64,000 nt of DNA. Origin: Escherichia coli. Its GTDB lineage: Bacteria > Pseudomonadota > Gammaproteobacteria > Enterobacterales > Enterobacteriaceae. The position numbers and the translations under genes were made by a program. Shown in pieces: positions 5,968-62,983 of this stretch (position 1 is its first letter; the number at the start of each line of letters is the position of its first letter). The stretch lies in the NCBI RefSeq assembly GCF_044324875.1, contig NZ_CP172185.1. One strand, written 5' to 3'. A model generated the notes under the pieces. It was given only the letters and a program-made list of their open reading frames with translations, ran no database searches and was not told where the DNA came from.

Positions 5968-6339
5968 CTTCTTATCTTTCGCCAGCAAAGACACTACCGC
6001 CGGGCCGGCAAGGATTGCCAGCCCTGCAATTGCCAGCAAAAAGTTGTTTTCCAGTACGCGGGACAACAGCCACAGCACAATCAGCGCTGCGCCAAAATAC
6101 CAGGTCGTGGTCAGCTCTTCCAGCACGTCTGCCACCTCACGCCAGCGTTGCTCGGGGTGGCGCTGAAACACCAGCATCATCACTACCGTGACACAATACA
6201 GTGCGCATAATCCCACGCCGACGTGAACCAGAGTCTTACTCATCCAGCCCACCACCAGCAGCGCCACTACCAGTAAATGCAACATAATCTGCCAGCAACT
6301 TAGACCCGTTGCGACACGAACACGTTGTTGCCACTTCAT
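5929..6339 (-). CDS. ybhQ: Inner membrane protein YbhQ
   Basis: 136 aa, four hydrophobic segments; conserved position between ybhR and ybhP. Confidence 0.8.
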
Positions 6340-6471
6340 GGCTTCTCTCCTGAAGAATTTATCTCTACTTACTCAGAGTACCGAACTTTACGGAAAATTC
6401 CGTAAGACCGCACCTTTTTGTGACGCCGACTACACTATTTCAATGAGATAAGAGGCAAAGACAGGAAAATT

Positions 6472-7233
6472 ATGCCCGATCAAACACAACAATTTTCGTT
6501 CAAGGTGCTCACCATCAATATTCACAAAGGCTTTACCGCGTTTAACCGACGCTTCATTTTGCCGGAACTTCGCGACGCCGTGCGTACCGTCAGCGCCGAT
6601 ATTGTTTGCCTGCAGGAAGTGATGGGCGCGCACGAAGTTCATCCGCTGCATGTGGAAAACTGGCCCGATACCTCGCACTACGAGTTTCTCGCCGACACCA
6701 TGTGGAGCGATTTCGCCTACGGTCGCAATGCCGTATACCCGGAAGGACATCACGGTAACGCCGTTCTTTCACGTTATCCCATTGAACATTATGAGAATCG
6801 TGATGTTTCGGTCGATGGTGCGGAAAAGCGCGGCGTGCTCTACTGCCGCATTGTGCCGCCGATGACCGGGAAAGCGATTCATGTGATGTGCGTACATCTG
6901 GGCCTGCGTGAGGCGCACCGTCAGGCGCAGCTTGCGATGCTCGCCGAATGGGTGAATGAGCTGCCGGACGGCGAACCGGTATTGGTGGCGGGTGATTTCA
7001 ACGACTGGCGGCAAAAAGCTAATCATCCGTTAAAAGTGCAGGCCGGGCTGGATGAGATATTTACCCGCGCCCACGGACGCCCGGCGCGCACGTTTCCGGT
7101 GCAATTTCCTCTACTACGACTGGACAGGATCTACGTCAAAAATGCCAGCGCCAGCGCGCCAACCGCGTTGCCGCTGCGGACATGGCGACACCTTTCTGAT
7201 CATGCCCCTTTAAGTGCGGAGATTCATTTATGA
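6472..7233 (+). CDS. ybhP: Endonuclease/exonuclease/phosphatase family protein YbhP
   Basis: 253 aa; EEP-fold signature residues; gene order. Confidence 0.85.
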
Positions 7234-8471
7234 AATGTAGCTGGCGCGAAGGCAATAAGATCCAGTTGCTGGAAAACGGCGAGCAATATTATCCCGCGGT
7301 GTTTAAGGCGATTGGCGAGGCGCAAGAACGTATCATTCTTGAAACGTTTATCTGGTTTGAGGATGACGTCGGCAAACAGCTGCATGCGGCGCTACTGGCA
7401 GCAGCACAACGCGGGGTTAAAGCGGAAGTCTTGCTGGATGGCTACGGTTCGCCGGATCTCAGCGATGAGTTTGTCAATGAACTGACGGCAGCTGGCGTGG
7501 TGTTCCGCTACTACGATCCCCGCCCTCGCCTTTTTGGTATGCGCACCAATGTGTTTCGCCGGATGCATCGCAAAATTGTGGTGATCGACGCGCGTATCGC
7601 CTTTATTGGCGGGCTGAATTACTCCGCCGAGCATATGTCCAGCTACGGTCCGGAGGCTAAACAGGATTACGCGGTACGCCTCGAAGGGCCGATTGTCGAA
7701 GATATTCTCCAGTTTGAGCTGGAAAACCTGCCAGGACAGAGCGCGGCACGACGCTGGTGGCGACGTCATCATAAAGCAGAAGAGAACCGCCAGCCGGGAG
7801 AAGCGCAGGTATTGCTGGTCTGGCGCGATAACGAAGAACATCGCGATGATATCGAACGCCACTATCTGAAAATGCTCACTCAGGCGCGGCGAGAAGTCAT
7901 TATCGCCAACGCCTACTTCTTCCCCGGCTATCGATTTTTACACGCCTTGCGTAAAGCGGCACGGCGCGGGGTGCGGATCAAACTGATCATTCAGGGCGAA
8001 CCGGATATGCCGATTGTCAGAGTCGGCGCGCGCTTGCTGTATAACTATCTGGTTAAAGGCGGCGTTCAGGTGTTTGAGTACCGCCGCCGTCCGCTCCACG
8101 GCAAAGTGGCATTGATGGACGATCACTGGGCGACGGTAGGGTCCAGTAATCTCGATCCGCTCAGTTTGTCACTGAATCTCGAAGCAAATGTCATCATCCA
8201 CGATCGTCATTTTAACCAGACGCTGCGTGATAATCTAAACGGCATTATCGCCGCAGATTGTCAGCAGGTCGATGAAACCATGCTGCCGAAACGCACCTGG
8301 TGGAACCTGACTAAAAGCGTGCTGGCCTTCCACTTTTTACGCCACTTCCCGGCTCTGGTGGGCTGGCTTCCGGCACACACACCACGTCTGGCGCAGGTTG
8401 ACCCGCCCGCCCAACCGACAATGGAAACGCAGGATCGGGTAGAAACTGAAAACACGGGGGTAAAACCCTGA
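7230..8471 (+). CDS. clsB: Cardiolipin synthase B (phospholipase D family)
   Basis: 413 aa with two HxK(x)4D motifs (HRKIVVID..., HGKVALMDD...); overlaps ybhP stop. Confidence 0.9.
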
Positions 8472-22956: not shown

Positions 22957-23014
22957 CGGGAAGTCAGCGTGAGGGTTTCTGGCTACACTTTCTGCAAACA
23001 ATAAAGGAGGGTTC

Positions 23015-23491
23015 ATGAAACTCATCAGTAATGATCTGCGCGATGGCGATAAGTTGCCACATCGTCATGTCTTTAACGGCATGGGTTACGATGGCGATAA
23101 TATTTCACCGCATCTGGCGTGGGATGATGTTCCTGCGGGAACGAAAAGTTTTGTCGTCACCTGCTACGACCCGGATGCGCCAACCGGCTCCGGCTGGTGG
23201 CACTGGGTAGTTGTTAATTTACCCGCTGATACCCGCGTATTACCGCAAGGGTTTGGCTCTGGTCTGGTAGCAATGCCAGACGGCGTTTTGCAGACGCGTA
23301 CCGACTTTGGTAAAACCGGGTACGATGGCGCAGCGCCGCCGAAAGGCGAAACCCATCGCTACATCTTTACCGTTCACGCGCTGGATGTAGAACGTATTGA
23401 TGTCGATGAAGGAGCCAGCGGCGCGATGGTCGGTTTTAACGTCCATTTCCACTCTCTGGCAAGCGCCTCGATTACTGCGATGTTTAGTTAA
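23015..23491 (+). CDS. ybhB: PEBP/RKIP-family protein YbhB
   Basis: 158 aa phosphatidylethanolamine-binding protein family; the gene that flanks attB-lambda on the bio side. Confidence 0.85.
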   Translation: MKLISNDLRDGDKLPHRHVFNGMGYDGDNISPHLAWDDVPAGTKSFVVTCYDPDAPTGSGWWHWVVVNLPADTRVLPQGFGSGLVAMPDGVLQTRTDFGKTGYDGAAPPKGETHRYIFTVHALDVERIDVDEGASGAMVGFNVHFHSLASASITAMFS

Positions 23492-23581
23492 TCACTCTGC
23501 CAGATGGCGCAATGCCATCTGGTATCACTTAAAGGTATTAAAAACAACTTTTTGTCTTTTTACCTTCCCGTTTCGCTCAAG

Positions 23582-23596
23582 TTAGTATAAAAAAGC
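23582..23596. repeat. Prophage attachment core, bio-proximal junction (attR): ttagtataaaaaagc
   Basis: Exact 15-bp lambda common core; identical copy at 62969..62983; flanked on the phage side by Int arm-type sites (cagtcactat, gtgacctg). Confidence 0.9.
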
Positions 23597-23742
23597 TGAA
23601 CGCGAAACAGCAAAAGCCAATAATATCAATGTGTTAAAATACATTTAGTCTAAAAAATAGACTTCATGATACTACAAAACACAACATATCCAGTCACTAT
23701 GAATCAACTACTTAGGTGGTATTAGTGACCTGAGACAGAGCA

Positions 23743-23784
23743 TTAGCGCAAGGTGATTTTTTGTCCTCTTGCGCTAATTTTTTG
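23743..23784 (+). terminator. sib/tI-like hairpin terminator in the att P' arm
   Basis: 10-bp stem ttagcgcaag / cttgcgctaa followed by TTTTTTG; same strand as int; sits where lambda sib lies relative to the core. Confidence 0.5.
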
Positions 23785-23939
23785 TCATCAAACATATCGC
23801 ACTCCAGAGAAGCACAACACCTTGCAGTCCAGTGCAAAGCTTTGTGTACCAGAGTTTTCCTCATCAACTACCGCAAGTATCGATCGATTGAGACTTGGAT
23901 GATAGACTTCATACCTTTCAGAACTCATTGATTAAATAA

Positions 23940-24302
23940 ATGTTAAATATATTTGCAAGGTACACCTCGATTGGTGTGCTGAACACACTTATACACTGGG
24001 TGGTTTTTGGTGTATGTATCTATGCCGCGCATACCAATCAGGCTCTGGCAAACTTCGCAGGTTTCGTTGTGGCTGTGAGTTTTAGCTTCTTCGCGAATGC
24101 AAAATTCACATTCAAAGCATCAACTACAACGATGCGCTACATGTTATATGTCGGGTTCATGGGAACACTGAGTGCTACTGTTGGATGGGCTGCTGATAGA
24201 TGCGCACTTCCCCCGATGATAACTCTTGTCACCTTCTCCGCCATCAGCCTGGTGTGCGGTTTCGTCTATTCAAAGTTCATTGTCTTTAGGGATGCGAAAT
24301 GA
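23940..24302 (+). CDS. gtrA: Bactoprenol-linked glucose translocase (flippase) GtrA
   Basis: 120 aa, four hydrophobic segments; first gene of a three-gene gtr cassette. Confidence 0.8.
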
Positions 24303-25228
24303 AAATTTCTTTAGTCGTTCCGGTCTTTAACGAAGAGGCCACGATACCTATTTTTTATAAAACCGTGCGCGAATTTGAAGGGCTTCAGCAGCATGAAGTC
24401 GAGATAGTCTTCATAAACGATGGCAGCAAAGACGCTACAGAATCAATTATCAACGAGCTTGCTGTTGCCGACCCGCTTGTGGTTTCGCTGTCGTTCACAC
24501 GTAACTTCGGCAAAGAACCCGCCCTGTTCGCAGGTCTGGACCATGCTACCGGGGAGGCAATTATCCCGATTGACGTTGATCTGCAAGACCCTATCGAAGT
24601 TATTCCTCACTTGATAGAGAAATGGCAGGCCGGTGCAGATATGGTTCTGGCTAAACGCTCTGACCGCTCCACTGACAGCAGGCTGAAGCGTAAATCTGCT
24701 GAGTGGTTCTATAAACTTCATAACAAAATCAGCAACCCTCAGATAGAAGAGAATGTTGGCGACTTCCGGCTCATGTCTCGCGAAGTAGTAGAAAATATTA
24801 AGCTCATGCCAGAACGAAACCTGTTTATGAAGGGTGTGCTGAGCTGGGTTGGTGGTCGAACCGATGTCGTAGAATATGCGCGAGCAGAACGCGTTGCAGG
24901 AAGCACAAAGTTCAATGGATGGAAGCTATGGAACTTGGCGCTGGAAGGGATCACTAGCTTCTCAACATTCCCGCTTCGCATGTGGACCTATATTGGGTTA
25001 TTTATTGCATGTATATCATTTACATACGGTTCATGGATGATAATTGATAAATTAATTTTTGGTAATAATGTACCTGGATACCCTTCAATTCTTGTATCAA
25101 TATTGTTTCTTGGCGGCGTACAACTAATTGGTATTGGTGTACTTGGAGAGTACATAGGACGTATTTATATTGAAGTTAAGCAGCGCCCAAGATATGTTTT
25201 AAAGGATCAGAAAAATGATTGCAAATAA
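24299..25228 (+). CDS. gtrB: Bactoprenol glucosyltransferase GtrB (GT2 family)
   Basis: 309 aa; N-terminal GT2 domain with DxD-type motifs (NDGSKD, DVDLQD), C-terminal TM helices; 4-bp overlap with gtrA. Confidence 0.85.
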
Positions 25229-26702
25229 AAACAAAACACCTTTCCATTGGTTCTTGATATCTGTTTTTATATATTTCACCCCCATCATCATGGCAAATAT
25301 TCATTATGTAGATGATCAGGGAAGAGCTATATGGGGGTATACTGGATGGGCTAGGGATGGTAGACCTTTGGCTGAAATGTTGATGATTGCATTGAATTTC
25401 AACATGCACATAACGGACTTATTCCCATTTCCTGCAATATTATCAGTATTTTTGATATCTGTTTGCCTGTATTTTTTTAGCAGGATGTTTATATCGACAG
25501 ATAATAAATTTATTGGACTGTTGGTTCCTCTTGGTATTTTATCAAGCCCATTTTTAATTGAAAATGCAATGTATCGCTTTGATGTTTTACCGATGTTCAT
25601 AAGTATTGCATTGTCATTCTCAGTTGTAATATTTAATTTCAAAAAGACAATTTTAAATATTTCTTTTGCCGCCCTGTTAACATTATTTATATTGTCTATA
25701 TACCAAGCATCATTAAATTTCATGCTGGTTATTATTCTGTGTAAATATATTTACATGTACTTTAACTCAGATAGTAACAGACATCTATTAACTTACCTCA
25801 TAGAAAAGACGGTATCATTAGTTATAGGTGTTGCATTATATTTTTTGGTGGTTATTCCTTTATTTTTAACTGTTGTTGGGGACCCGGATCACCCATCAAT
25901 TAAAACTGAAGGCATTTTTTCAGTTATATATGAAAACTTAAAATTTTATCTTCATTCAATATCTAGTGGTATTTTTGGGGAATCAGGACGAGTTGCGTTT
26001 ATAGTAATATTTTTATTTTTCATTGCAATGACGACATTCATCGCGCTAAAGAAATCAATACCTAATAAAAGTATTACTGGTATTATTAATTTTTTAATTA
26101 CAATAACATCACCAGTAACAGCTTTGATATTGTCTTTTGCTACTCTATTACCACTTCAGCATCACATCGACGCCCCAAGAGTGATGATCGGTTTTTCTGC
26201 TACGATGTTGTTCTTATTCATGATTGTTTATCTTTTCTCGCGAGAAACAAAAAATTCAATAACATATATACTTGTAATTCCTCTGATTTATGTTTTTGGT
26301 TTTTTATGTTCATACACAAATGCAATGACAGAAGAAAAAAACATAACCACAGTTCTGTTTCATCAGATTAAAAATGATGCTTTCGAGTTAAGCGGAAAAA
26401 CAAATCAGATACTTATTTTTAATGGTAAAAAGAAAGACAATGATGTTTTTGTAAACGCACGAAATAATTACCCGTTAATATCTAGATTTTTCCCAGAGTA
26501 TTTCTATAATTGGGATTGGCCATTCCCTTATATGAATAGAGTTGGAGTTTACTTTAAACACCCTGGGAATACAAACATTGCAAGTGTGTTAAATGAAAAA
26601 ACCTTTTGCTCAACCGCAAAGATTAAAAGAGCATATGAATATAACTTATACTCATATGATGATATTATTGTAGTTGATTTTGACAAAAACATTTGTCAGT
26701 GA
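25215..26702 (+). CDS. Serotype-specific O-antigen glucosyltransferase (Gtr type-specific, polytopic)
   Basis: 495 aa, many TM segments, strongly AT-rich, third position of gtr cassette. Confidence 0.7.
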
Positions 26703-26882
26703 TTATTATGGCGCATCGATACTTTATATTGATGCGCCATAAATTAATCAAGTATTTGTTCCATCAGCTCGCTGCCATGATGAAGCTGTGCCGTTATACC
26801 ATATTGGAAGACCTAGCGTTGTATCGTAGTATTCAACTGGCACAATTGGAGAGACAGGCCTCTGCGCAGTTGTACCATATAA

Positions 26883-27032
26883 CAAAGATGTCAACGGAGA
26901 GGTGTAGGCCGCAAACTGACTGATGATGAAAAAAGGCGGCTGAATGCGGTACTCGACTACATCGACGCAGTGACAGCAGTTGATGCTGCCCCTGCGCCTG
27001 ATATCAACTGGCCCGCTCCCCCGGTTGCGTAG
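26883..27032 (+). pseudogene. Remnant of a tail-fiber-assembly (Tfa) C-terminus in inverted orientation
   Basis: Plus-strand frame encodes ...[38 protein letters not shown], homologous to the C-terminus of the adjacent minus-strand Tfa; no N-terminal part present. Confidence 0.45.
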
Positions 27033-27408
27033 GCCACTCTATTTCGGGTGCCGCTGAGGTATCAACACGGTTCAGCAGTACCCTGTATTTTTTCCACGCC
27101 AGCAGTAACGTCTGTTCATCGTCTGTCGCCATTTCCAAATCAACGGCATCCTGCAGCGGTGCTATTGCGTTATTTGCTACGGTCAGTAGTGCTGATTTCT
27201 GCAGCTCAGCCTCCGCAACTAACGCGTTGTGAGAGCGTTCTGGGGGAGGTGGCGCGGTAAATACTCCGTCTGAATATGACCAACCGATGCCAGCATCGCC
27301 GTTTAACGGAACTAAATTACCAGCCTCTGGTTTCCATTCAGAAATTCCGTCCCAGATAATGACATCAATAACAACGTTATTATCAACAACTGCATAAACA
27401 TCATTCAT
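27004..27408 (-). CDS. Tail fiber assembly protein (Tfa chaperone)
   Basis: 134 aa; N-terminal [11 protein letters not shown]... and C-terminal WPxxP motif; immediately downstream of the tail fiber gene. Confidence 0.75.
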
Positions 27409-28341
27409 TTACATGTACTCCCGAATTACCAGCACGCCATTAGCTCCGTGCCCGCCACGTCCTGACGTGTGTGAATAGCTATTATCGTATGCACCCCCGC
27501 CGCCGGAGCCAGAGCAAACTCCAGAATTACCGCTCAGTTGCCCAGCGCGGCCGCCGCCACCCCAATAGCTCGATGCCCCATTGCCTACTAATAGCGCCTG
27601 GCCCGCCTGTCCGTCTGAACCGTCTCCGCCTTGTTCAGTTTTATAACCGCCAGAGCCTGAACCACCGAGCCCGCCAGCGGTATTTGTAGCGCCGCCCCAT
27701 TGCCCACCCTGGCCGCCGAGCGCAGTTAATGTCATGAACGAACTATGACCGCCATTATTTCCAGACCCTGGCCCATTGGCACCACTACCACCGCTACCAA
27801 TTGTCACTGTATAGGTCCCTGGCCCGGCATCGTTGTCTGTCGCATAAATAGTGGCAAAAACAGTACCTCCGGCTCCTCCGCCAGCCCCTGAAAATGTCTG
27901 ATTTGCGTTCTCCGCGTTACATCCACCGCCACCGCCGCCCGCCGCAGTCAGAATAACGTCAATTCGTTTTACGTCAGCTGGCCACGTATATGAACCCGAC
28001 GATGAAAAAACGACAGTTTTGCTGTAACGCCCCGAGCCATCTCCCAAACCAAGGTTTTCGAGAGCCGTTTTCACCGTGCCATCCGATTTGATATCGCCAA
28101 ACGGATTCTTGCGGCTTAACAGCAGCTCACGAAGCGCTGTAAGCAACTGGTCATGCCGCCCCTTCTCCAGGCTGGCACCGGATGCCTCCACCACGCTGCA
28201 AAGCTCCTCCTGCAACATGTCAAAGTAGTCATCATCCAGATCGGTGGCAGGCGTGCCGGTCTGGGGGTTACCACGGGTAAAACCGTTCTTACCCGCGCCG
28301 AACTTATCCTTCTGCGCGGTTTTCGTGTCTATACGATGCAT
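27409..28341 (-). CDS. Tail fiber protein with glycine-rich repeat region
   Basis: 310 aa; long Gly-rich low-complexity stretch; between DUF2313 baseplate gene and tfa. Confidence 0.7.
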
Positions 28342-28344
28342 GAA

Positions 28345-28929
28345 TTACTCCGGATATTTAAAAATTACGTAGGTATGCGACGGGCAGAGTTTGTTAAGCA
28401 CGCACTCGACAACGGTGTCCCCCCAGATACGCAGTGCGGAATCACAGGGATCGCCACATGTCATCCAGGTGGTGTTGGTGGCAGCTGGCATATTGACCTG
28501 CCAGTAATACCGCCATTCCGGCGCATTCACCGCGTCAGTACAGGCCGATGAGCAGGTGAACGTGCTTTTGTCGTATCGCGTGATGGTGGCATCTGGTCTG
28601 CCCAGGGCAGCAAGCTGCGCAAGGTAAAAATCCTCATTGATGCCACCCGCCAGGTTAACCTTCGCATCCAGCCGTTGCTGACGCTGGCGAAGGGTCTGCG
28701 TCCCTGCCGGAATACATTCATCCGGCAGGCCGCACAGACGCTCCCAGCGGTTTATCAGTTCGGTGGTGGTGCGCGGATCCAGCTCCCGCATCAGGGCATC
28801 CGCACGCTGATGAGCACGGGTTAATGACTGTGCCGCACCGGCAATCGCCGGATCGCTGGCTGACCACGCCGGACCAGGGGGCAACAGTGCCGACAACAGA
28901 CGGATGTAATCATCGTTTGTCACGTCCAT
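28345..28929 (-). CDS. Phage tail protein, YmfQ/DUF2313-like
   Basis: 194 aa; position between baseplate J and tail fiber as in e14/Mu-like tails. Confidence 0.65.
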
Positions 28930-29978
28930 GAAATCGTCCCCAGAACCGCCAGTTCATTTTTTGCAATGGAGATATTGTCCGCCGGAGCAAGCAACTGATG
29001 GCTGTATTCCCCGTTCGCACCGGAAATCGCTTCACTGATACGCGATACCTTAAGCTCTCCCTGCGGATAACCATCACGCAGCAGGAATGAACGCAACTCC
29101 GCGGTGATGGCAGCCCGTATTTCCGGTGTGTCCGGCGTCACGCGGATATGAAAATCCACTTTGTGCGCCACCGGCCTGAATACATACAAATCAGAGCCTG
29201 CCACCGGGGCCAGTGGCTCGATATGTTGTCTTGCCGCCGTTTCCGTTGATTCTTCCGGAATGGGGTTAATCAGGTCACTGCTGGCAATCATCACACCGAC
29301 AGTCCCCGTTCCCATCCAGTGTCGGTATGTCCATGCGCGGGTAATGCCGGGCACTTCTTTAGCCCAGACGACATAGTCCCCGTCAGCCCCGCCCTGAGGC
29401 GTCCAGTAATACCGCTCAATGACGCGGGCGCGCCACGTTTCCAGCTCTTCAGTATCAAATCCACCTGTCAGGGTATCTGCCTCGCCGGAAGACGGCAGAC
29501 CATTAACCGGCGTGACCAGGATTAATGACGTACCGTCGTCAGCGTTACCGACCGCGCCTGCACTTGAGCAGGCGATCGGCACGCGCAGGACACCACCGGT
29601 GCTGGTTGCATCGGCAGTTGCCGTGTACTGAACCAGGTCATCGCGCTGAATAACACTTCCGGCGGTCACCTTCAGGCCATCGCTGACACCTTCCCAGCGC
29701 ATATACCCGCTGGCAGCCGTGGCCCCCTTGCGCGGACACCGTTTCATCGCAGCATGTCGCGCCAGCCAGGACTCATCGCACAGGTCAGGCAGCATGTTCA
29801 TTGCCAGATAATCGATGTACCCGTAAACCGTATGCAGCGCCGCCGCATACACCTTTGCCCGCACGTCTTCATCCATGCGCCGGAGCGTGTCGCTGACGTC
29901 CAGCCTGGCGAATAAATCGTTACGGAGCATACTGATATTTTCTGCCAGCGTCGGGCGCTGAAATTCACTGTCCGCCAT
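28920..29978 (-). CDS. Baseplate J-like protein (Mu gp47-like)
   Basis: 352 aa; position and size in Mu-type baseplate module. Confidence 0.75.
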
Positions 29979-59767: not shown

Positions 59768-60304
59768 ATGTCATTTATTAAAACTTTTTCCGGGAAGCAT
59801 TTTTATTATGACAAGATAAATCAAGACGACATCGTTATTAACGATATCGCGGTTTCCCTTTCAAATATCTGTCGCTTTGCAGGACATCTTTCACATTTCT
59901 ACAGCGTCGCCCAACATGCGGTGCTTTGCAGCCAACTGGTGCCGCAGGAATTTGCTTTTGAAGCGTTAATGCATGATGCAACAGAAGCGTATTGCCAGGA
60001 CATCCCGGCGCCACTGAAACGCCTTCTTCCTGACTATAAACGGATGGAAGAAAAAATAGACGCCGTAATCCGTGAGAAATACGGGTTACCCCCAGTTATG
60101 AGTACACCCGTGAAATATGCCGATCTCATCATGCTGGCAACTGAACGCCGCGATCTCGGGCTTGATGATGGCTCTTTCTGGCCAGTACTGGAAGGTATCC
60201 CGGCAACAGAGATGTTCAAAGTTATTCCACTGGCACCGGGCCATGCCTACGGGATGTTTATGGAACGCTTCAACGAGTTATCGGAATTACGCAAATGTGC
60301 ATAA
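59768..60304 (+). CDS. HD-domain 5'-deoxynucleotidase, YfdR-like
   Basis: Start ATG 59768 (MSFIKTFSGKHFYY...) with SD ggag; HD motif (LMHDATEAY). Confidence 0.7.
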   Translation: MSFIKTFSGKHFYYDKINQDDIVINDIAVSLSNICRFAGHLSHFYSVAQHAVLCSQLVPQEFAFEALMHDATEAYCQDIPAPLKRLLPDYKRMEEKIDAVIREKYGLPPVMSTPVKYADLIMLATERRDLGLDDGSFWPVLEGIPATEMFKVIPLAPGHAYGMFMERFNELSELRKCA

Positions 60305-61173
60305 CTCATGTAGTTAGTTTTTCTGGCGGGAGAACATCCGCATATCTTGTTCACCTGATGGAAGAACAAAGAAAGGCTGGCAATAACGTCTGCTACATCT
60401 TTATGGATACCGGTTGCGAACATCCGCTGACATACCGCTTTATCCGGGAGGTTGTGAAGTTCTGGGACATACCACTAACTGTGTTACAGGTCGATATAAA
60501 TCCTGAGCTTGGGCAGCCAAATGGTTATACAGAATGGGAGCCAACGGATATTCAGACACGAATGCCGGTGCTTAAACCGTTTATGGACATGGTTAAAAAG
60601 TACGGCACGCCATACATCGGCGGCGCGTTCTGTACTGACAGGCTAAAACTCATCCCTTTCACGAAATACTGCGATAACCATTTCGGGCGAGGTAATTACA
60701 TCACATGGCTGGGTATTCGTGCAGACGAACCCCGTAGGCTGAAACCGAAATCGGGCGTCCGGTATCTTGCCGAGCTGTCAGATTTTGATAAGTCGGATGT
60801 TATCCGGTGGTGGCGAAAACAACCTTTTGATTTGCAAATCCCGGAGCATCTCGGGAACTGTGTTTTCTGCATCAAAAAGTCAACGCAAAAGCTGGGGCTT
60901 GCATGTAAAGACGAACCAGGTCTGATGCGAGTTTTTAATGAGCTGGTTACAGGCAAACACGTCAGGGATGGTCATCGCAGAACAGGTAAAGACATTATGT
61001 ACCGTGGTCACCTGACGCTTGACGGAATTGCCAGAATGTCTGCCAACAGCGACTACAGAAATTTGTATCAGGCGATGGTACAGGCCAGGCGATTCGATAC
61101 CGGCTCGTGTTCAGAGTCATGTGAAATCTGGGGTGATCAATTGGAATTGGAATTCGAAGAGGTAGGGGTATGA
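60295..61173 (+). CDS. PAPS reductase-like PP-loop ATP pyrophosphatase family protein
   Basis: 292 aa; N-terminal PP-loop SFSGGRTS (SGGxDS-type); C-terminal Cys cluster. Confidence 0.7.
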   Translation: MCITHVVSFSGGRTSAYLVHLMEEQRKAGNNVCYIFMDTGCEHPLTYRFIREVVKFWDIPLTVLQVDINPELGQPNGYTEWEPTDIQTRMPVLKPFMDMVKKYGTPYIGGAFCTDRLKLIPFTKYCDNHFGRGNYITWLGIRADEPRRLKPKSGVRYLAELSDFDKSDVIRWWRKQPFDLQIPEHLGNCVFCIKKSTQKLGLACKDEPGLMRVFNELVTGKHVRDGHRRTGKDIMYRGHLTLDGIARMSANSDYRNLYQAMVQARRFDTGSCSESCEIWGDQLELEFEEVGV

Positions 61174-61514: not shown

Positions 61515-61628
61515 TAGAGCCATACAGCCTCACACTCGATGAGGCCTGTTCATTGCTCAATGATATCCAGACCTACCATCGCCGCATCAATGCGGCTTTT
61601 TCTTGCGTGTAATTGCGGAGACTTTGCG

Positions 61629-61847
61629 ATGTACTTGACACTTCAGGAGTGGAACGCTCGCCAGCGACGCCCAAGAAGCCTTGAAACAGTTCGTCGATGG
61701 GTGCGCGAATGCAGGATATTCCCTCCTCCGGTTAAGGATGGAAGAGAGTATCTGTTCCACGAATCAGCGGTAAAGGTTGACTTAAATCGACCAGTAACAG
61801 GTAGCCTTTTGAAGAGGATCAGAAATGGGAAGAAGGCGAAGTCATGA
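61629..61847 (+). CDS. xis: Excisionase Xis (lambda type)
   Basis: 72 aa from ATG 61629 (MYLTLQEWNARQRRPRSLETVRRWVRECRIFPPPVKDGREYLFHESAVKVDLNRPVTGSLLKRIRNGKKAKS), matching lambda Xis; overlaps int start. Confidence 0.9.
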   Translation: MYLTLQEWNARQRRPRSLETVRRWVRECRIFPPPVKDGREYLFHESAVKVDLNRPVTGSLLKRIRNGKKAKS

Positions 61848-62895
61848 GCGCCGGGATTTACCCCCTAACCTTTATATAAGAAACAATGGATATTACTGCT
61901 ACAGGGACCCAAGGACGGGTAAAGAGTTCGGATTAGGCAGAGACAGGAGGATAGCAATTACTGAAGCAATACAGGCAAACATTGAGTTATTTTCAGGACA
62001 CAAACACAAGCCTCTGACAGCGAGAATCAACAGTGATAATTCTGTTACGTTACATTCATGGCTTGATCGCTACGAAAAAATCCTCGCCAGCAGAGGAATC
62101 AAGCAGAAGACACTTATAAATTACATGAGCAAAATTAAAGCAATAAGGAGGGGGCTACCTGATGTTCCACTTGAAGACATCACCACAAAAGAAATTGCAG
62201 CAATGCTCAATGGATACATAGACGAGGGCAAGGCGGCGTCAGCCAAGTTAATCAGATCAACACTGAGCGATGCATTCCGAGAGGCAATAGCTGAAGGCCA
62301 TATAACAACAAACCCGGTCGCTGCCACTCGCGCAGCAAAATCAGAGGTAAGGAGATCAAGACTTACGGCTGACGAATACCTGAAAATTTATCAAGCAGCA
62401 GAATCATCACCATGTTGGCTTAGACTTGCAATGGAACTGGCTGTTGTTACCGGGCAGCGAGTTGGTGATTTATGCGAAATGAAGTGGTCTGATATCGTAG
62501 ATGGATATCTTTATGTCGAGCAAAGCAAAACAGGCGTAAAAATTGCCATCCCAACAGCATTGCATGTTGATGCTCTCGGAATATCAATGAAGGAAACACT
62601 TGATAAATGCAAAGAGATTCTTGGCGGAGAAACCATAATTGCATCTACTCGTCGCGAACCGCTTTCATCCGGCACAGTATCAAGGTATTTTATGCGCGCA
62701 CGAAAAGCATCAGGTCTTTCCTTCGAAGGGGATCCGCCTACCTTTCACGAGTTGCGCAGTTTGTCTGCAAGACTCTATGAGAAGCAGATAAGCGATAAGT
62801 TTGCTCAACATCTTCTCGGGCATAAGTCGGACACCATGGCATCACAGTATCGTGATGACAGAGGCAGGGAGTGGGACAAAATTGAAATCAAATAA
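61825..62895 (+). CDS. int: Integrase Int (lambda-type tyrosine recombinase)
   Basis: 356 aa, essentially lambda Int (MGRRRSHERRDLPPNLYIRNNGYYCYRDPRTGKEF... with R-H-R-Y catalytic residues); adjacent to the gal-proximal att core. Confidence 0.95.
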   Translation: MGRRRSHERRDLPPNLYIRNNGYYCYRDPRTGKEFGLGRDRRIAITEAIQANIELFSGHKHKPLTARINSDNSVTLHSWLDRYEKILASRGIKQKTLINYMSKIKAIRRGLPDVPLEDITTKEIAAMLNGYIDEGKAASAKLIRSTLSDAFREAIAEGHITTNPVAATRAAKSEVRRSRLTADEYLKIYQAAESSPCWLRLAMELAVVTGQRVGDLCEMKWSDIVDGYLYVEQSKTGVKIAIPTALHVDALGISMKETLDKCKEILGGETIIASTRREPLSSGTVSRYFMRARKASGLSFEGDPPTFHELRSLSARLYEKQISDKFAQHLLGHKSDTMASQYRDDRGREWDKIEIK

Positions 62896-62968
62896 TGATT
62901 TTATTTTGACTGATAGTGACCTGTTCGTTGCAACAAATTGATAAGCAATGCTTTTTTATAATGCCAAC

Positions 62969-62983
62969 TTAGTATAAAAAAGC
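62969..62983. repeat. Prophage attachment core, int-proximal junction (attL): ttagtataaaaaagc
   Basis: Identical to the 23582..23596 copy; phage-side arm carries lambda P-arm-like sequence (gactgatagtgacctgttcgttgcaacaaattgataagcaatgc). Confidence 0.9.

Follow-up and report, generated by a model that had tools for sequence, protein, structure and literature searches.

A prophage-borne gtrABC cassette with a candidate O17-specific gtrC allele in Escherichia coli

The Escherichia coli serogroups O17, O44, O73, O77, and O106 have O-antigen gene clusters that are >99% identical and that encode one backbone, Man-Man-Man-GlcNAc (Man, mannose; GlcNAc, N-acetylglucosamine) (PMC7685785, PMC10304059). 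What sets them apart is glucose (Glc): O77 is unbranched, a single Glc is attached at one position in O17 and at another in O44, and O73 and O106 have two (PMC10304059). The branches have been ascribed to prophage gtr genes, an attribution that is still "proposed" except for O44, where a prophage of strain 042 located between ybhB and ybhC has confirmed it (PMC7685785, PMC10304059). Which gene, then, would make an O17 strain O17? The question is raised by a three-gene gtr cassette at one end of a prophage in a stretch of 64,000 nucleotides of E. coli DNA (contig NZ_CP172185.1, assembly GCF_044324875.1), which was analyzed as a whole and is called the window here. Comparisons at the sequence level suggest that this cassette is probably a functional gtrABC serotype-conversion operon, the type-specific gene of which, gtrC, is the allele that makes serogroup O17. 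The cassette comprises the following features:

23940-24302 (+): gtrA, a small membrane protein of 120 amino acids, the proposed flippase for undecaprenyl-phosphate (Und-P) glucose; matches phrog_2224 (E 2.7e-69)
24299-25228 (+): gtrB, a GT2 bactoprenol (Und-P) glucosyltransferase of 309 amino acids with two C-terminal membrane helices; matches phrog_34335 (E 4.9e-178)
25215-26702 (+): gtrC (type-specific), a polytopic glucosyltransferase of the GT-C fold with 495 amino acids; candidate O17-specific allele
26706-26742 (+): hairpin 3' of gtrC with a perfect 16-bp stem and a 5-nt loop, beginning 4 nt past the gtrC stop codon; candidate terminator

The genes are read from one strand in the order gtrA, gtrB, gtr(type), with an overlap of 4 nt between the first two and of 14 nt between gtrB and gtrC. 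An initial annotation had described them, from the letters alone, as a complete operon of a flippase, a bactoprenol glucosyltransferase, and an AT-rich, polytopic type-specific transferase. All of this is upheld: the reading frames lie exactly where it had placed them and the third is intact, and the assignments agree with the PHROG matches, with Pfam, and with the identity to characterized GtrA and GtrB proteins. GtrA is 96.7% identical to YfdG of E. coli K-12 and 77-95% identical to the GtrAs of phages. GtrB shares 85-90% of its residues with the GtrBs of SfI, SfII, SfIV, SfV, P22, and K-12, and matches the solved structure of the Synechocystis GtrB (5EKP, E 1e-89). The fraction of guanine plus cytosine (GC) is 0.455 in gtrA, 0.439 in gtrB, and 0.308 in gtrC, in flanks of about 0.5-0.6. 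The cassette is thus a well-known kind of system, for which the RefSeq annotation is already generic, and its gtrC is a new, unnamed member of it; a search of public sources found no specific name for the protein.

The identity of this third protein was traced through several kinds of comparison. GtrC matches the GtrC-like phrog_4829 over its full length (E 1e-73), and residues 26-333 align with positions 5-317 of the 317 positions of the Pfam model PF14264, Glucos_trans_II (i-Evalue 4e-27). In the AlphaFold model, about 11 long helices precede an alpha/beta domain at the C-terminus, and the sequence has multiple hydrophobic peaks along its length, as expected of the polytopic protein that had been described and of the GT-C membrane fold. 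An exhaustive HMMER search found 1218 representative homolog clusters at E <= 0.001, the nearest of them 40% identical; this large family is visible by exhaustive search only, a word-indexed protein search having returned only 7 homologs. Nearly all homologs have 470-530 amino acids and align end to end, indicating that GtrC is full length. Two aspartates, D33 and D34, are invariant across 54 diverse homologs and directly follow the first helix (10-27), in a loop that the lysine-rich N-terminus suggests is periplasmic.

Characterized transferases are distant from it. The closest is P22 GtrC (25.7% identity over 443 amino acids, E 1e-31), while pairwise comparison with GtrI, GtrII, GtrIV, GtrV, and YfdI gave no match better than E 0.4, a tblastn search of 50,697 phage records retrieved no phage GtrC above about 27% identity, a sequence search of the PDB returned nothing for GtrC, and no NCBIfam model matched GtrC or GtrA. 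Comparison with known Gtr transferases, proposed in the initial annotation as one way to check it, therefore left the third gene neither disrupted nor unrelated, if only distantly related to P22 GtrC. In Salmonella, identity inside one GtrC family is generally above 96%, and the same sugar can be modified by families that are <18% identical (PMC3688519). At 25.7% identity to the P22 protein, the window GtrC falls outside Salmonella GtrC family I (P22 type) and thus forms a separate family. In sum, the third gene encodes a GtrC-type enzyme of the GT-C superfamily that is intact and constitutes its own GtrC family. That it should move a group other than glucose, or act on an acceptor other than the O antigen, is very improbable. 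One Salmonella GtrC family is an acetyltransferase, so a gene called gtrC can have a non-glucosyl role (PMC4413052), and specificity is not readable from a GtrC sequence that is only 26% identical to its closest characterized relative. Against this, GtrC has the GT-C fold and belongs to the glucosyltransferase family PF14264, not to acyltransferases, its translation is coupled to that of a GtrB with 85-90% identity to proven synthases of Und-P-glucose, and glucose is precisely what differs among the O77-group serogroups (PMC7685785).

The strains that carry this gtrC point to the backbone on which it would act. The gene occurs in 34 of 5426 complete E. coli genomes (>=99.5% nucleotide identity), in sequence type (ST) 69, ST130-type, ST925, and phylogroup G "O77g" lineages; UMN026 (NC_011751.1), an O17:K52:H18 strain, lies outside this collection, and its non-appearance in the match lists carries no meaning. 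The O77-group wzy/wzx pair is present in 93 of the 5426 genomes. These include at least 30 of the 34 carrier records, against an expectation of 0.6 (hypergeometric P 3e-51, a value inflated by clonality and duplicate records). One carrier is K12a, the O17:H18 reference strain (PMC13248637). This strain was isolated in 1940 and encodes GtrC WP_000561375.1, from which the window protein differs by I179V. In its O-antigen cluster there are just two glycosyltransferase genes, along with manC, manB, and wzy and wzx of the "O17/O44/O73/O77/O106 family," and a megablast count finds a single gtrAB locus in its genome. The "O17:H18" label of another strain, MS14387, was discarded as independent support, having been assigned in silico. 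Because the carriers are almost all of the O77 group and include the O17 type strain, the earlier suggestion that the lysogen is seroconverted is strengthened, and such conversion now seems the more credible on genomic grounds. Among the 93 genomes with the O77-group wzy/wzx pair, at least 33 lack this gtrC and the two other alleles described below, including M7424, M00057, M11957, and Australian stx2d strains from hemolytic uremic syndrome (HUS); these are predicted to be true, unbranched O77 or to have further alleles.

Could the enzyme instead glucosylate the O77-group backbone without being specific to O17, for example by adding a branch that several serogroups have in common, or one of the pair found in O73 or O106? 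We consider this unlikely. The two Glc branches of O73 and O106 (PMC10304059) leave room for it, as do the carrier 2018-05-2CC, which has two gtrAB loci, and the single serologically defined carrier. It is opposed by the finding of one gtrAB locus in the other 33 of the 34 carrier records, the O17 type strain included, and by the absence of any genome in which the window allele stands together with either of the other two alleles. With 2018-05-2CC excepted, the one gtrAB locus in carriers of the window allele and of the O44 allele matches the single Glc branch of O17 and of O44 (PMC10304059).

The O17 assignment gains further meaning from the way in which gtrC is exchanged. In strain 042 (O44), this prophage occupies the same attachment (att) site and encodes an identical GtrA (WP_000931964.1), and its DNA is ~98% identical to that of the window over 23003-25218 and 26761-29000; the 1542 bp in between are unrelated. 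Two features delimit this exchange:

25219-26760 (+): exchangeable module of gtrC and its hairpin, substituted en bloc in sister prophages
26907-27032 (+): remnant of a tail-fiber-assembly gene, a pseudogene according to the Prokaryotic Genome Annotation Pipeline (PGAP) in CFSAN061770, 042, K12a, and CE0007a; coordinates by offset from the 042 alignment

The replacement gene of 042 encodes a protein of 491 amino acids with no detectable similarity to the window GtrC (best E = 1) and a distant relationship to GtrI; the GC fraction of both alleles is about 0.31. A third allele, WP_049143954.1 (485 amino acids), which shares 31% identity with that of 042, fills this slot in CE0007a (6277-7734 of locus L013), where the breakpoints relative to the window are 25235 and 26750, and is found in 13 other genomes, at least 9 of them of the O77 group. 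The window, 042, and third alleles occur in 34, 12, and 14 genomes, respectively, never co-occur, and are each followed by a different hairpin of their own. Carriers of the O44 allele have one gtrAB locus each, and 7 of the 14 carriers of the third allele have two, which suggests that this allele is linked to the two-branch serogroups O73 or O106. The remnant at 26907-27032, an inverted tail-fiber-assembly (tfa) fragment that makes up the conserved DNA to the right of the swapped block, runs into the end of the functional tfa at 27004-27408 (-) and may be a relic of an invertible tail-fiber segment.

On balance, it is likely that WP_000561375.1 and its I179V variant are the long-proposed O17 determinant and that, together with the 042 (O44) and third alleles, they form a series swapped into one slot of one phage family, so that one backbone would give rise to O17, O44, O73, O77, and O106, in the manner of Shigella flexneri. 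The cassette is also not confined to one chassis. In K12a and CE0007a it is accompanied by the same tail module and belongs to a prophage that encodes IntS and is integrated at argW, the homology to the window starting only at 23811. A Salmonella enterica assembly (GCA_010629045.1, 4726-7488 of locus L015) encodes a GtrC and a GtrB that are 99.4% and 98.7% identical to those of the window, in a P22-like podovirus prophage in which a gtrA of the P22 type (77.5%) and a complete phase-variation array of GATC sites accompany gtrBC. A Salmonella O antigen with the O77 backbone is reportedly described by Wang et al. 2007.

Whether a lysogen would express the cassette depends on the region upstream of gtrA, for which one feature is proposed:

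23852-23939 (+): inferred gtr promoter and leader, with -35 TCGATC at 23880-23885 and -10 TAGACT at 23903-23908, placed by homology

The 129 bp 5' of gtrA are common to the window, K12a, 042, the K-12 element CPS-53, and SfV. Between the phage attachment site and gtrA lies an element of ~40 bp (23811-23851) with a hairpin at 23819-23840, which is conserved in lambda (about 27470-27510), K12a, 042, K-12 CPS-53, SfV, and P22, and which forms the left edge of the module that the phage versions at att-lambda and at argW have in common. We take this hairpin to match, by position, the sib/tI retroregulator of lambda int, which means that the gtr promoter must lie 3' of it.

Phase variation governed by Dam and OxyR was considered for this promoter and rejected. 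The mark of such control is the four-GATC array of the P22 type, in which GATC-4 falls in the -35 element (PMC3688519). P22 has GATC sites at -135, -122, -71, and -58; in the window the sole GATC upstream of gtrA is the one at -58, inside the inferred -35, the segment with GATC-1 and GATC-2 (-135 and -122) is missing, and the equivalent of GATC-3 at -71 is not a GATC. As this leaves no upstream GATC/OxyR array, the window operon would probably be expressed constitutively. One and the same gtrBC would then stand under a phase-variable promoter in Salmonella and a non-phase-variable one in E. coli, which we regard as likely, on balance, when taken jointly with the O17 determinant and the allelic series.

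An intact cassette may nevertheless be silent or irrelevant in its host, if it is not expressed or finds no suitable acceptor, and the lysogen would then not be seroconverted. We hold this to be quite improbable, even though some Salmonella gtr operons cause no detectable change of the lipopolysaccharide when over-expressed (PMC3688519), a generic scan called no gtr promoter or canonical sigma-70 promoter upstream of gtrA, and the O-antigen cluster of this host lies outside the 64,000 nucleotides. The three reading frames are intact, gtrC is conserved at >=99.5% nucleotide identity in 34 genomes of several lineages (ST69, ST130, ST925, phylogroup G), it is closely associated with a single O-antigen cluster, and the -35/-10 region upstream of the cassette is shared by the functional operons of SfV, P22, and K-12.

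The uncalled promoter is one of several points that weigh against the assignment of this gtrC as an active O17 determinant. The hairpin after gtrC is without a classical U-tract and was not called by the generic promoter and terminator scan; the predicted RNA fold of 26695-26830 has -40.5 kcal/mol (z -3.4). Only K12a is O17 by definition and serology; the other "O17" and "O77g" labels are in silico and cannot split the five serogroups, and an O-antigen cluster of the O77 group was established in at least 30 of the 34 carriers. The megablast count of gtrAB in K12a would miss a gtr locus of divergent sequence, or a glucosyltransferase outside the Gtr type elsewhere in that genome. Neither the acceptor residue nor the linkage is derivable from the GtrC sequence at its distance from characterized relatives. 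A literature search found no paper that assigns an O17 gtrC; it did not cover Wang et al. 2007, where one may be named.

If the cassette acts as an O17 operon, its mechanism can be outlined as follows. GtrB would transfer glucose from uridine diphosphate glucose (UDP-Glc) onto undecaprenyl phosphate at the cytoplasmic face of the membrane, and GtrA would move the resulting Und-P-Glc to the periplasmic leaflet. There the GT-C-fold GtrC, by means of D33/D34 in its first periplasmic loop, would attach this glucose to a single residue in the Man-Man-Man-GlcNAc repeat unit of the O77 group, giving the single Glc side branch that sets O17 apart from O77 and O44. An own promoter just inside the bacterial-phage junction attR would allow the operon to be expressed in the lysogen. 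Exclusion of other phages that depend on the O antigen, which the initial annotation had expected of such cassettes, may follow from the altered structure.

How did the cassette come to stand at this site? It lies at one end of a prophage, the att functions of which are those of lambda:

23015-23491: ybhB, outside the attR core
23582-23596 (-): attR core, an exact match to the 15-bp common core of lambda, GCTTTTTTATACTAA, on the bio/ybhB side
23597-23851 (+): lambda-type attP P arm, ending in the hairpin 23819-23840 (terminator scan)
61825-62895 (+): lambda-type integrase, 99.2% identical to lambda Int over 356 amino acids, with a PHROG integrase match
62969-62983 (-): attL core, an exact core match on the gal/ybhC side, continuous with homology to the lambda P' arm and int

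GCTTTTTTATACTAA is present exactly twice in the window, with 0 copies expected by chance. The core and P arm at 23578-23851 are 87% identical to lambda 27742-27470, and 61581-62983 are 97.9% identical to the xis-int-P'-core region of lambda. bioB, bioA, and ybhB lie just outside the attR core, and host sequence resumes beyond the attL core. The locus thus has the site-specific integration module of lambda, with the core at both junctions, P and P' arms, lambda Int, and insertion between ybhB and ybhC. The two cores, with the lambda-type Int and arms, identify the 39.4-kb element as a prophage at attB-lambda, the gtr end of which is attR (P-O-B', bio side). The initial annotation had placed the cassette immediately inside the bio-proximal att site and named that end attR; gtrA indeed starts 344 bp inside the core, and the name holds in the lambda convention. 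The remainder of the prophage, which looks complete, encodes a CI-like repressor, CII, an O-like replication protein, terminase, portal, capsid, sheath, a Mu-like baseplate, and a tail fiber.

Two further loci of the prophage deserve mention. A Kiwa anti-phage pair, KwaA at 48756-49277 (PADLOC E 1.9e-83) and KwaB at 49283-50167 (E 2.3e-150, DUF4868), lies on the + strand, opposite to the neighboring lysis and late genes, and for this reason looks like a second set of defense cargo genes (a moron) besides gtrABC. In the early region near int, a gene resembling 3'-phosphoadenosine-5'-phosphosulfate (PAPS) reductases (60295-61173, +) matches PHROG 424 (E 9.5e-91) and, weakly, the PADLOC model of SspD (E 1.2e-14).

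Related systems place the cassette in a wider context. Among the closest is the gtr locus of the 042 prophage between ybhB and ybhC, responsible for the O44 Glc branch (Wang et al. 2007, as cited in PMC7685785 and PMC10304059), with the same backbone, att site, GtrA, and host O-antigen cluster and ~98% DNA identity in gtrAB and the tail flanks; the two differ in the 1.5-kb block of gtrC and hairpin, and their alleles occur in disjoint sets of genomes. The Shigella flexneri phages SfV, SfI, SfII, and SfIV have the same layout of int, attP, gtrA-gtrB-gtr(type), hairpin, convergent tail-fiber-assembly gene, and Mu-like baseplate genes, with GtrAs 86-87% and GtrBs 86-88% identical to those of the window, and here, too, a single backbone is diversified by alternative type-specific alleles. 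However, they integrate by a P22-type int at thrW and not by lambda Int/att, their GtrI, GtrII, GtrIV, and GtrV are pairwise unrelated to the window GtrC, and their acceptor is a rhamnose-rich backbone, whereas that of the window cassette would be the mannan-type O77 backbone (PMC7685785).

The gtrABC of Salmonella phage P22 (GtrC family I, O:1 factor) shares the Pfam family of GtrC and has a GtrB 87.5% identical to that of the window; as in SfV, SfI, SfII, and SfIV, its gtr genes lie next to attP/int, the location that they have at the end of the window prophage. P22 gtr is phase-variable, and the segment of ~87 bp with the upstream GATC and OxyR sites is missing from the window copy; in addition, P22 is a podovirus and the window prophage a myovirus. 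In E. coli K-12, the yfdG-yfdH-yfdI genes of CPS-53 at argW, the site at which the cassette of K12a is likewise found with IntS, encode a GtrA 96.7% and a GtrB 85% identical to those of the window behind the same upstream -35/-10 region. YfdI is GtrIV-like (40% to GtrIV) and has no similarity to the window GtrC, and CPS-53 is a cryptic remnant, in contrast to the complete-looking prophage described here.

For the biology of these phages, the locus offers a clear natural case in which a specificity gene is exchanged en bloc while its flanks are conserved, and the same cassette moves among three phage chassis and two integration sites. For E. coli, its value would lie in typing. Current reports, including those on the lineage of the 2025 French HUS outbreak, lump O17, O44, O73, O77, and O106 as "O77g" (PMC13188871, PMC13248637), since genome-based serotyping cannot separate the five, and gtrC alleles assigned to serogroups would give this resolution from sequence alone. 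If the assignment of the O17 allele is true, "O77g" strains could be sub-typed in silico, including those of outbreak-related ST69, a major uropathogenic and poultry-associated lineage, and there would be a genetic handle on an antigenic difference that is relevant to O-antigen vaccines, phage susceptibility, and protozoan grazing (PMC10304059).

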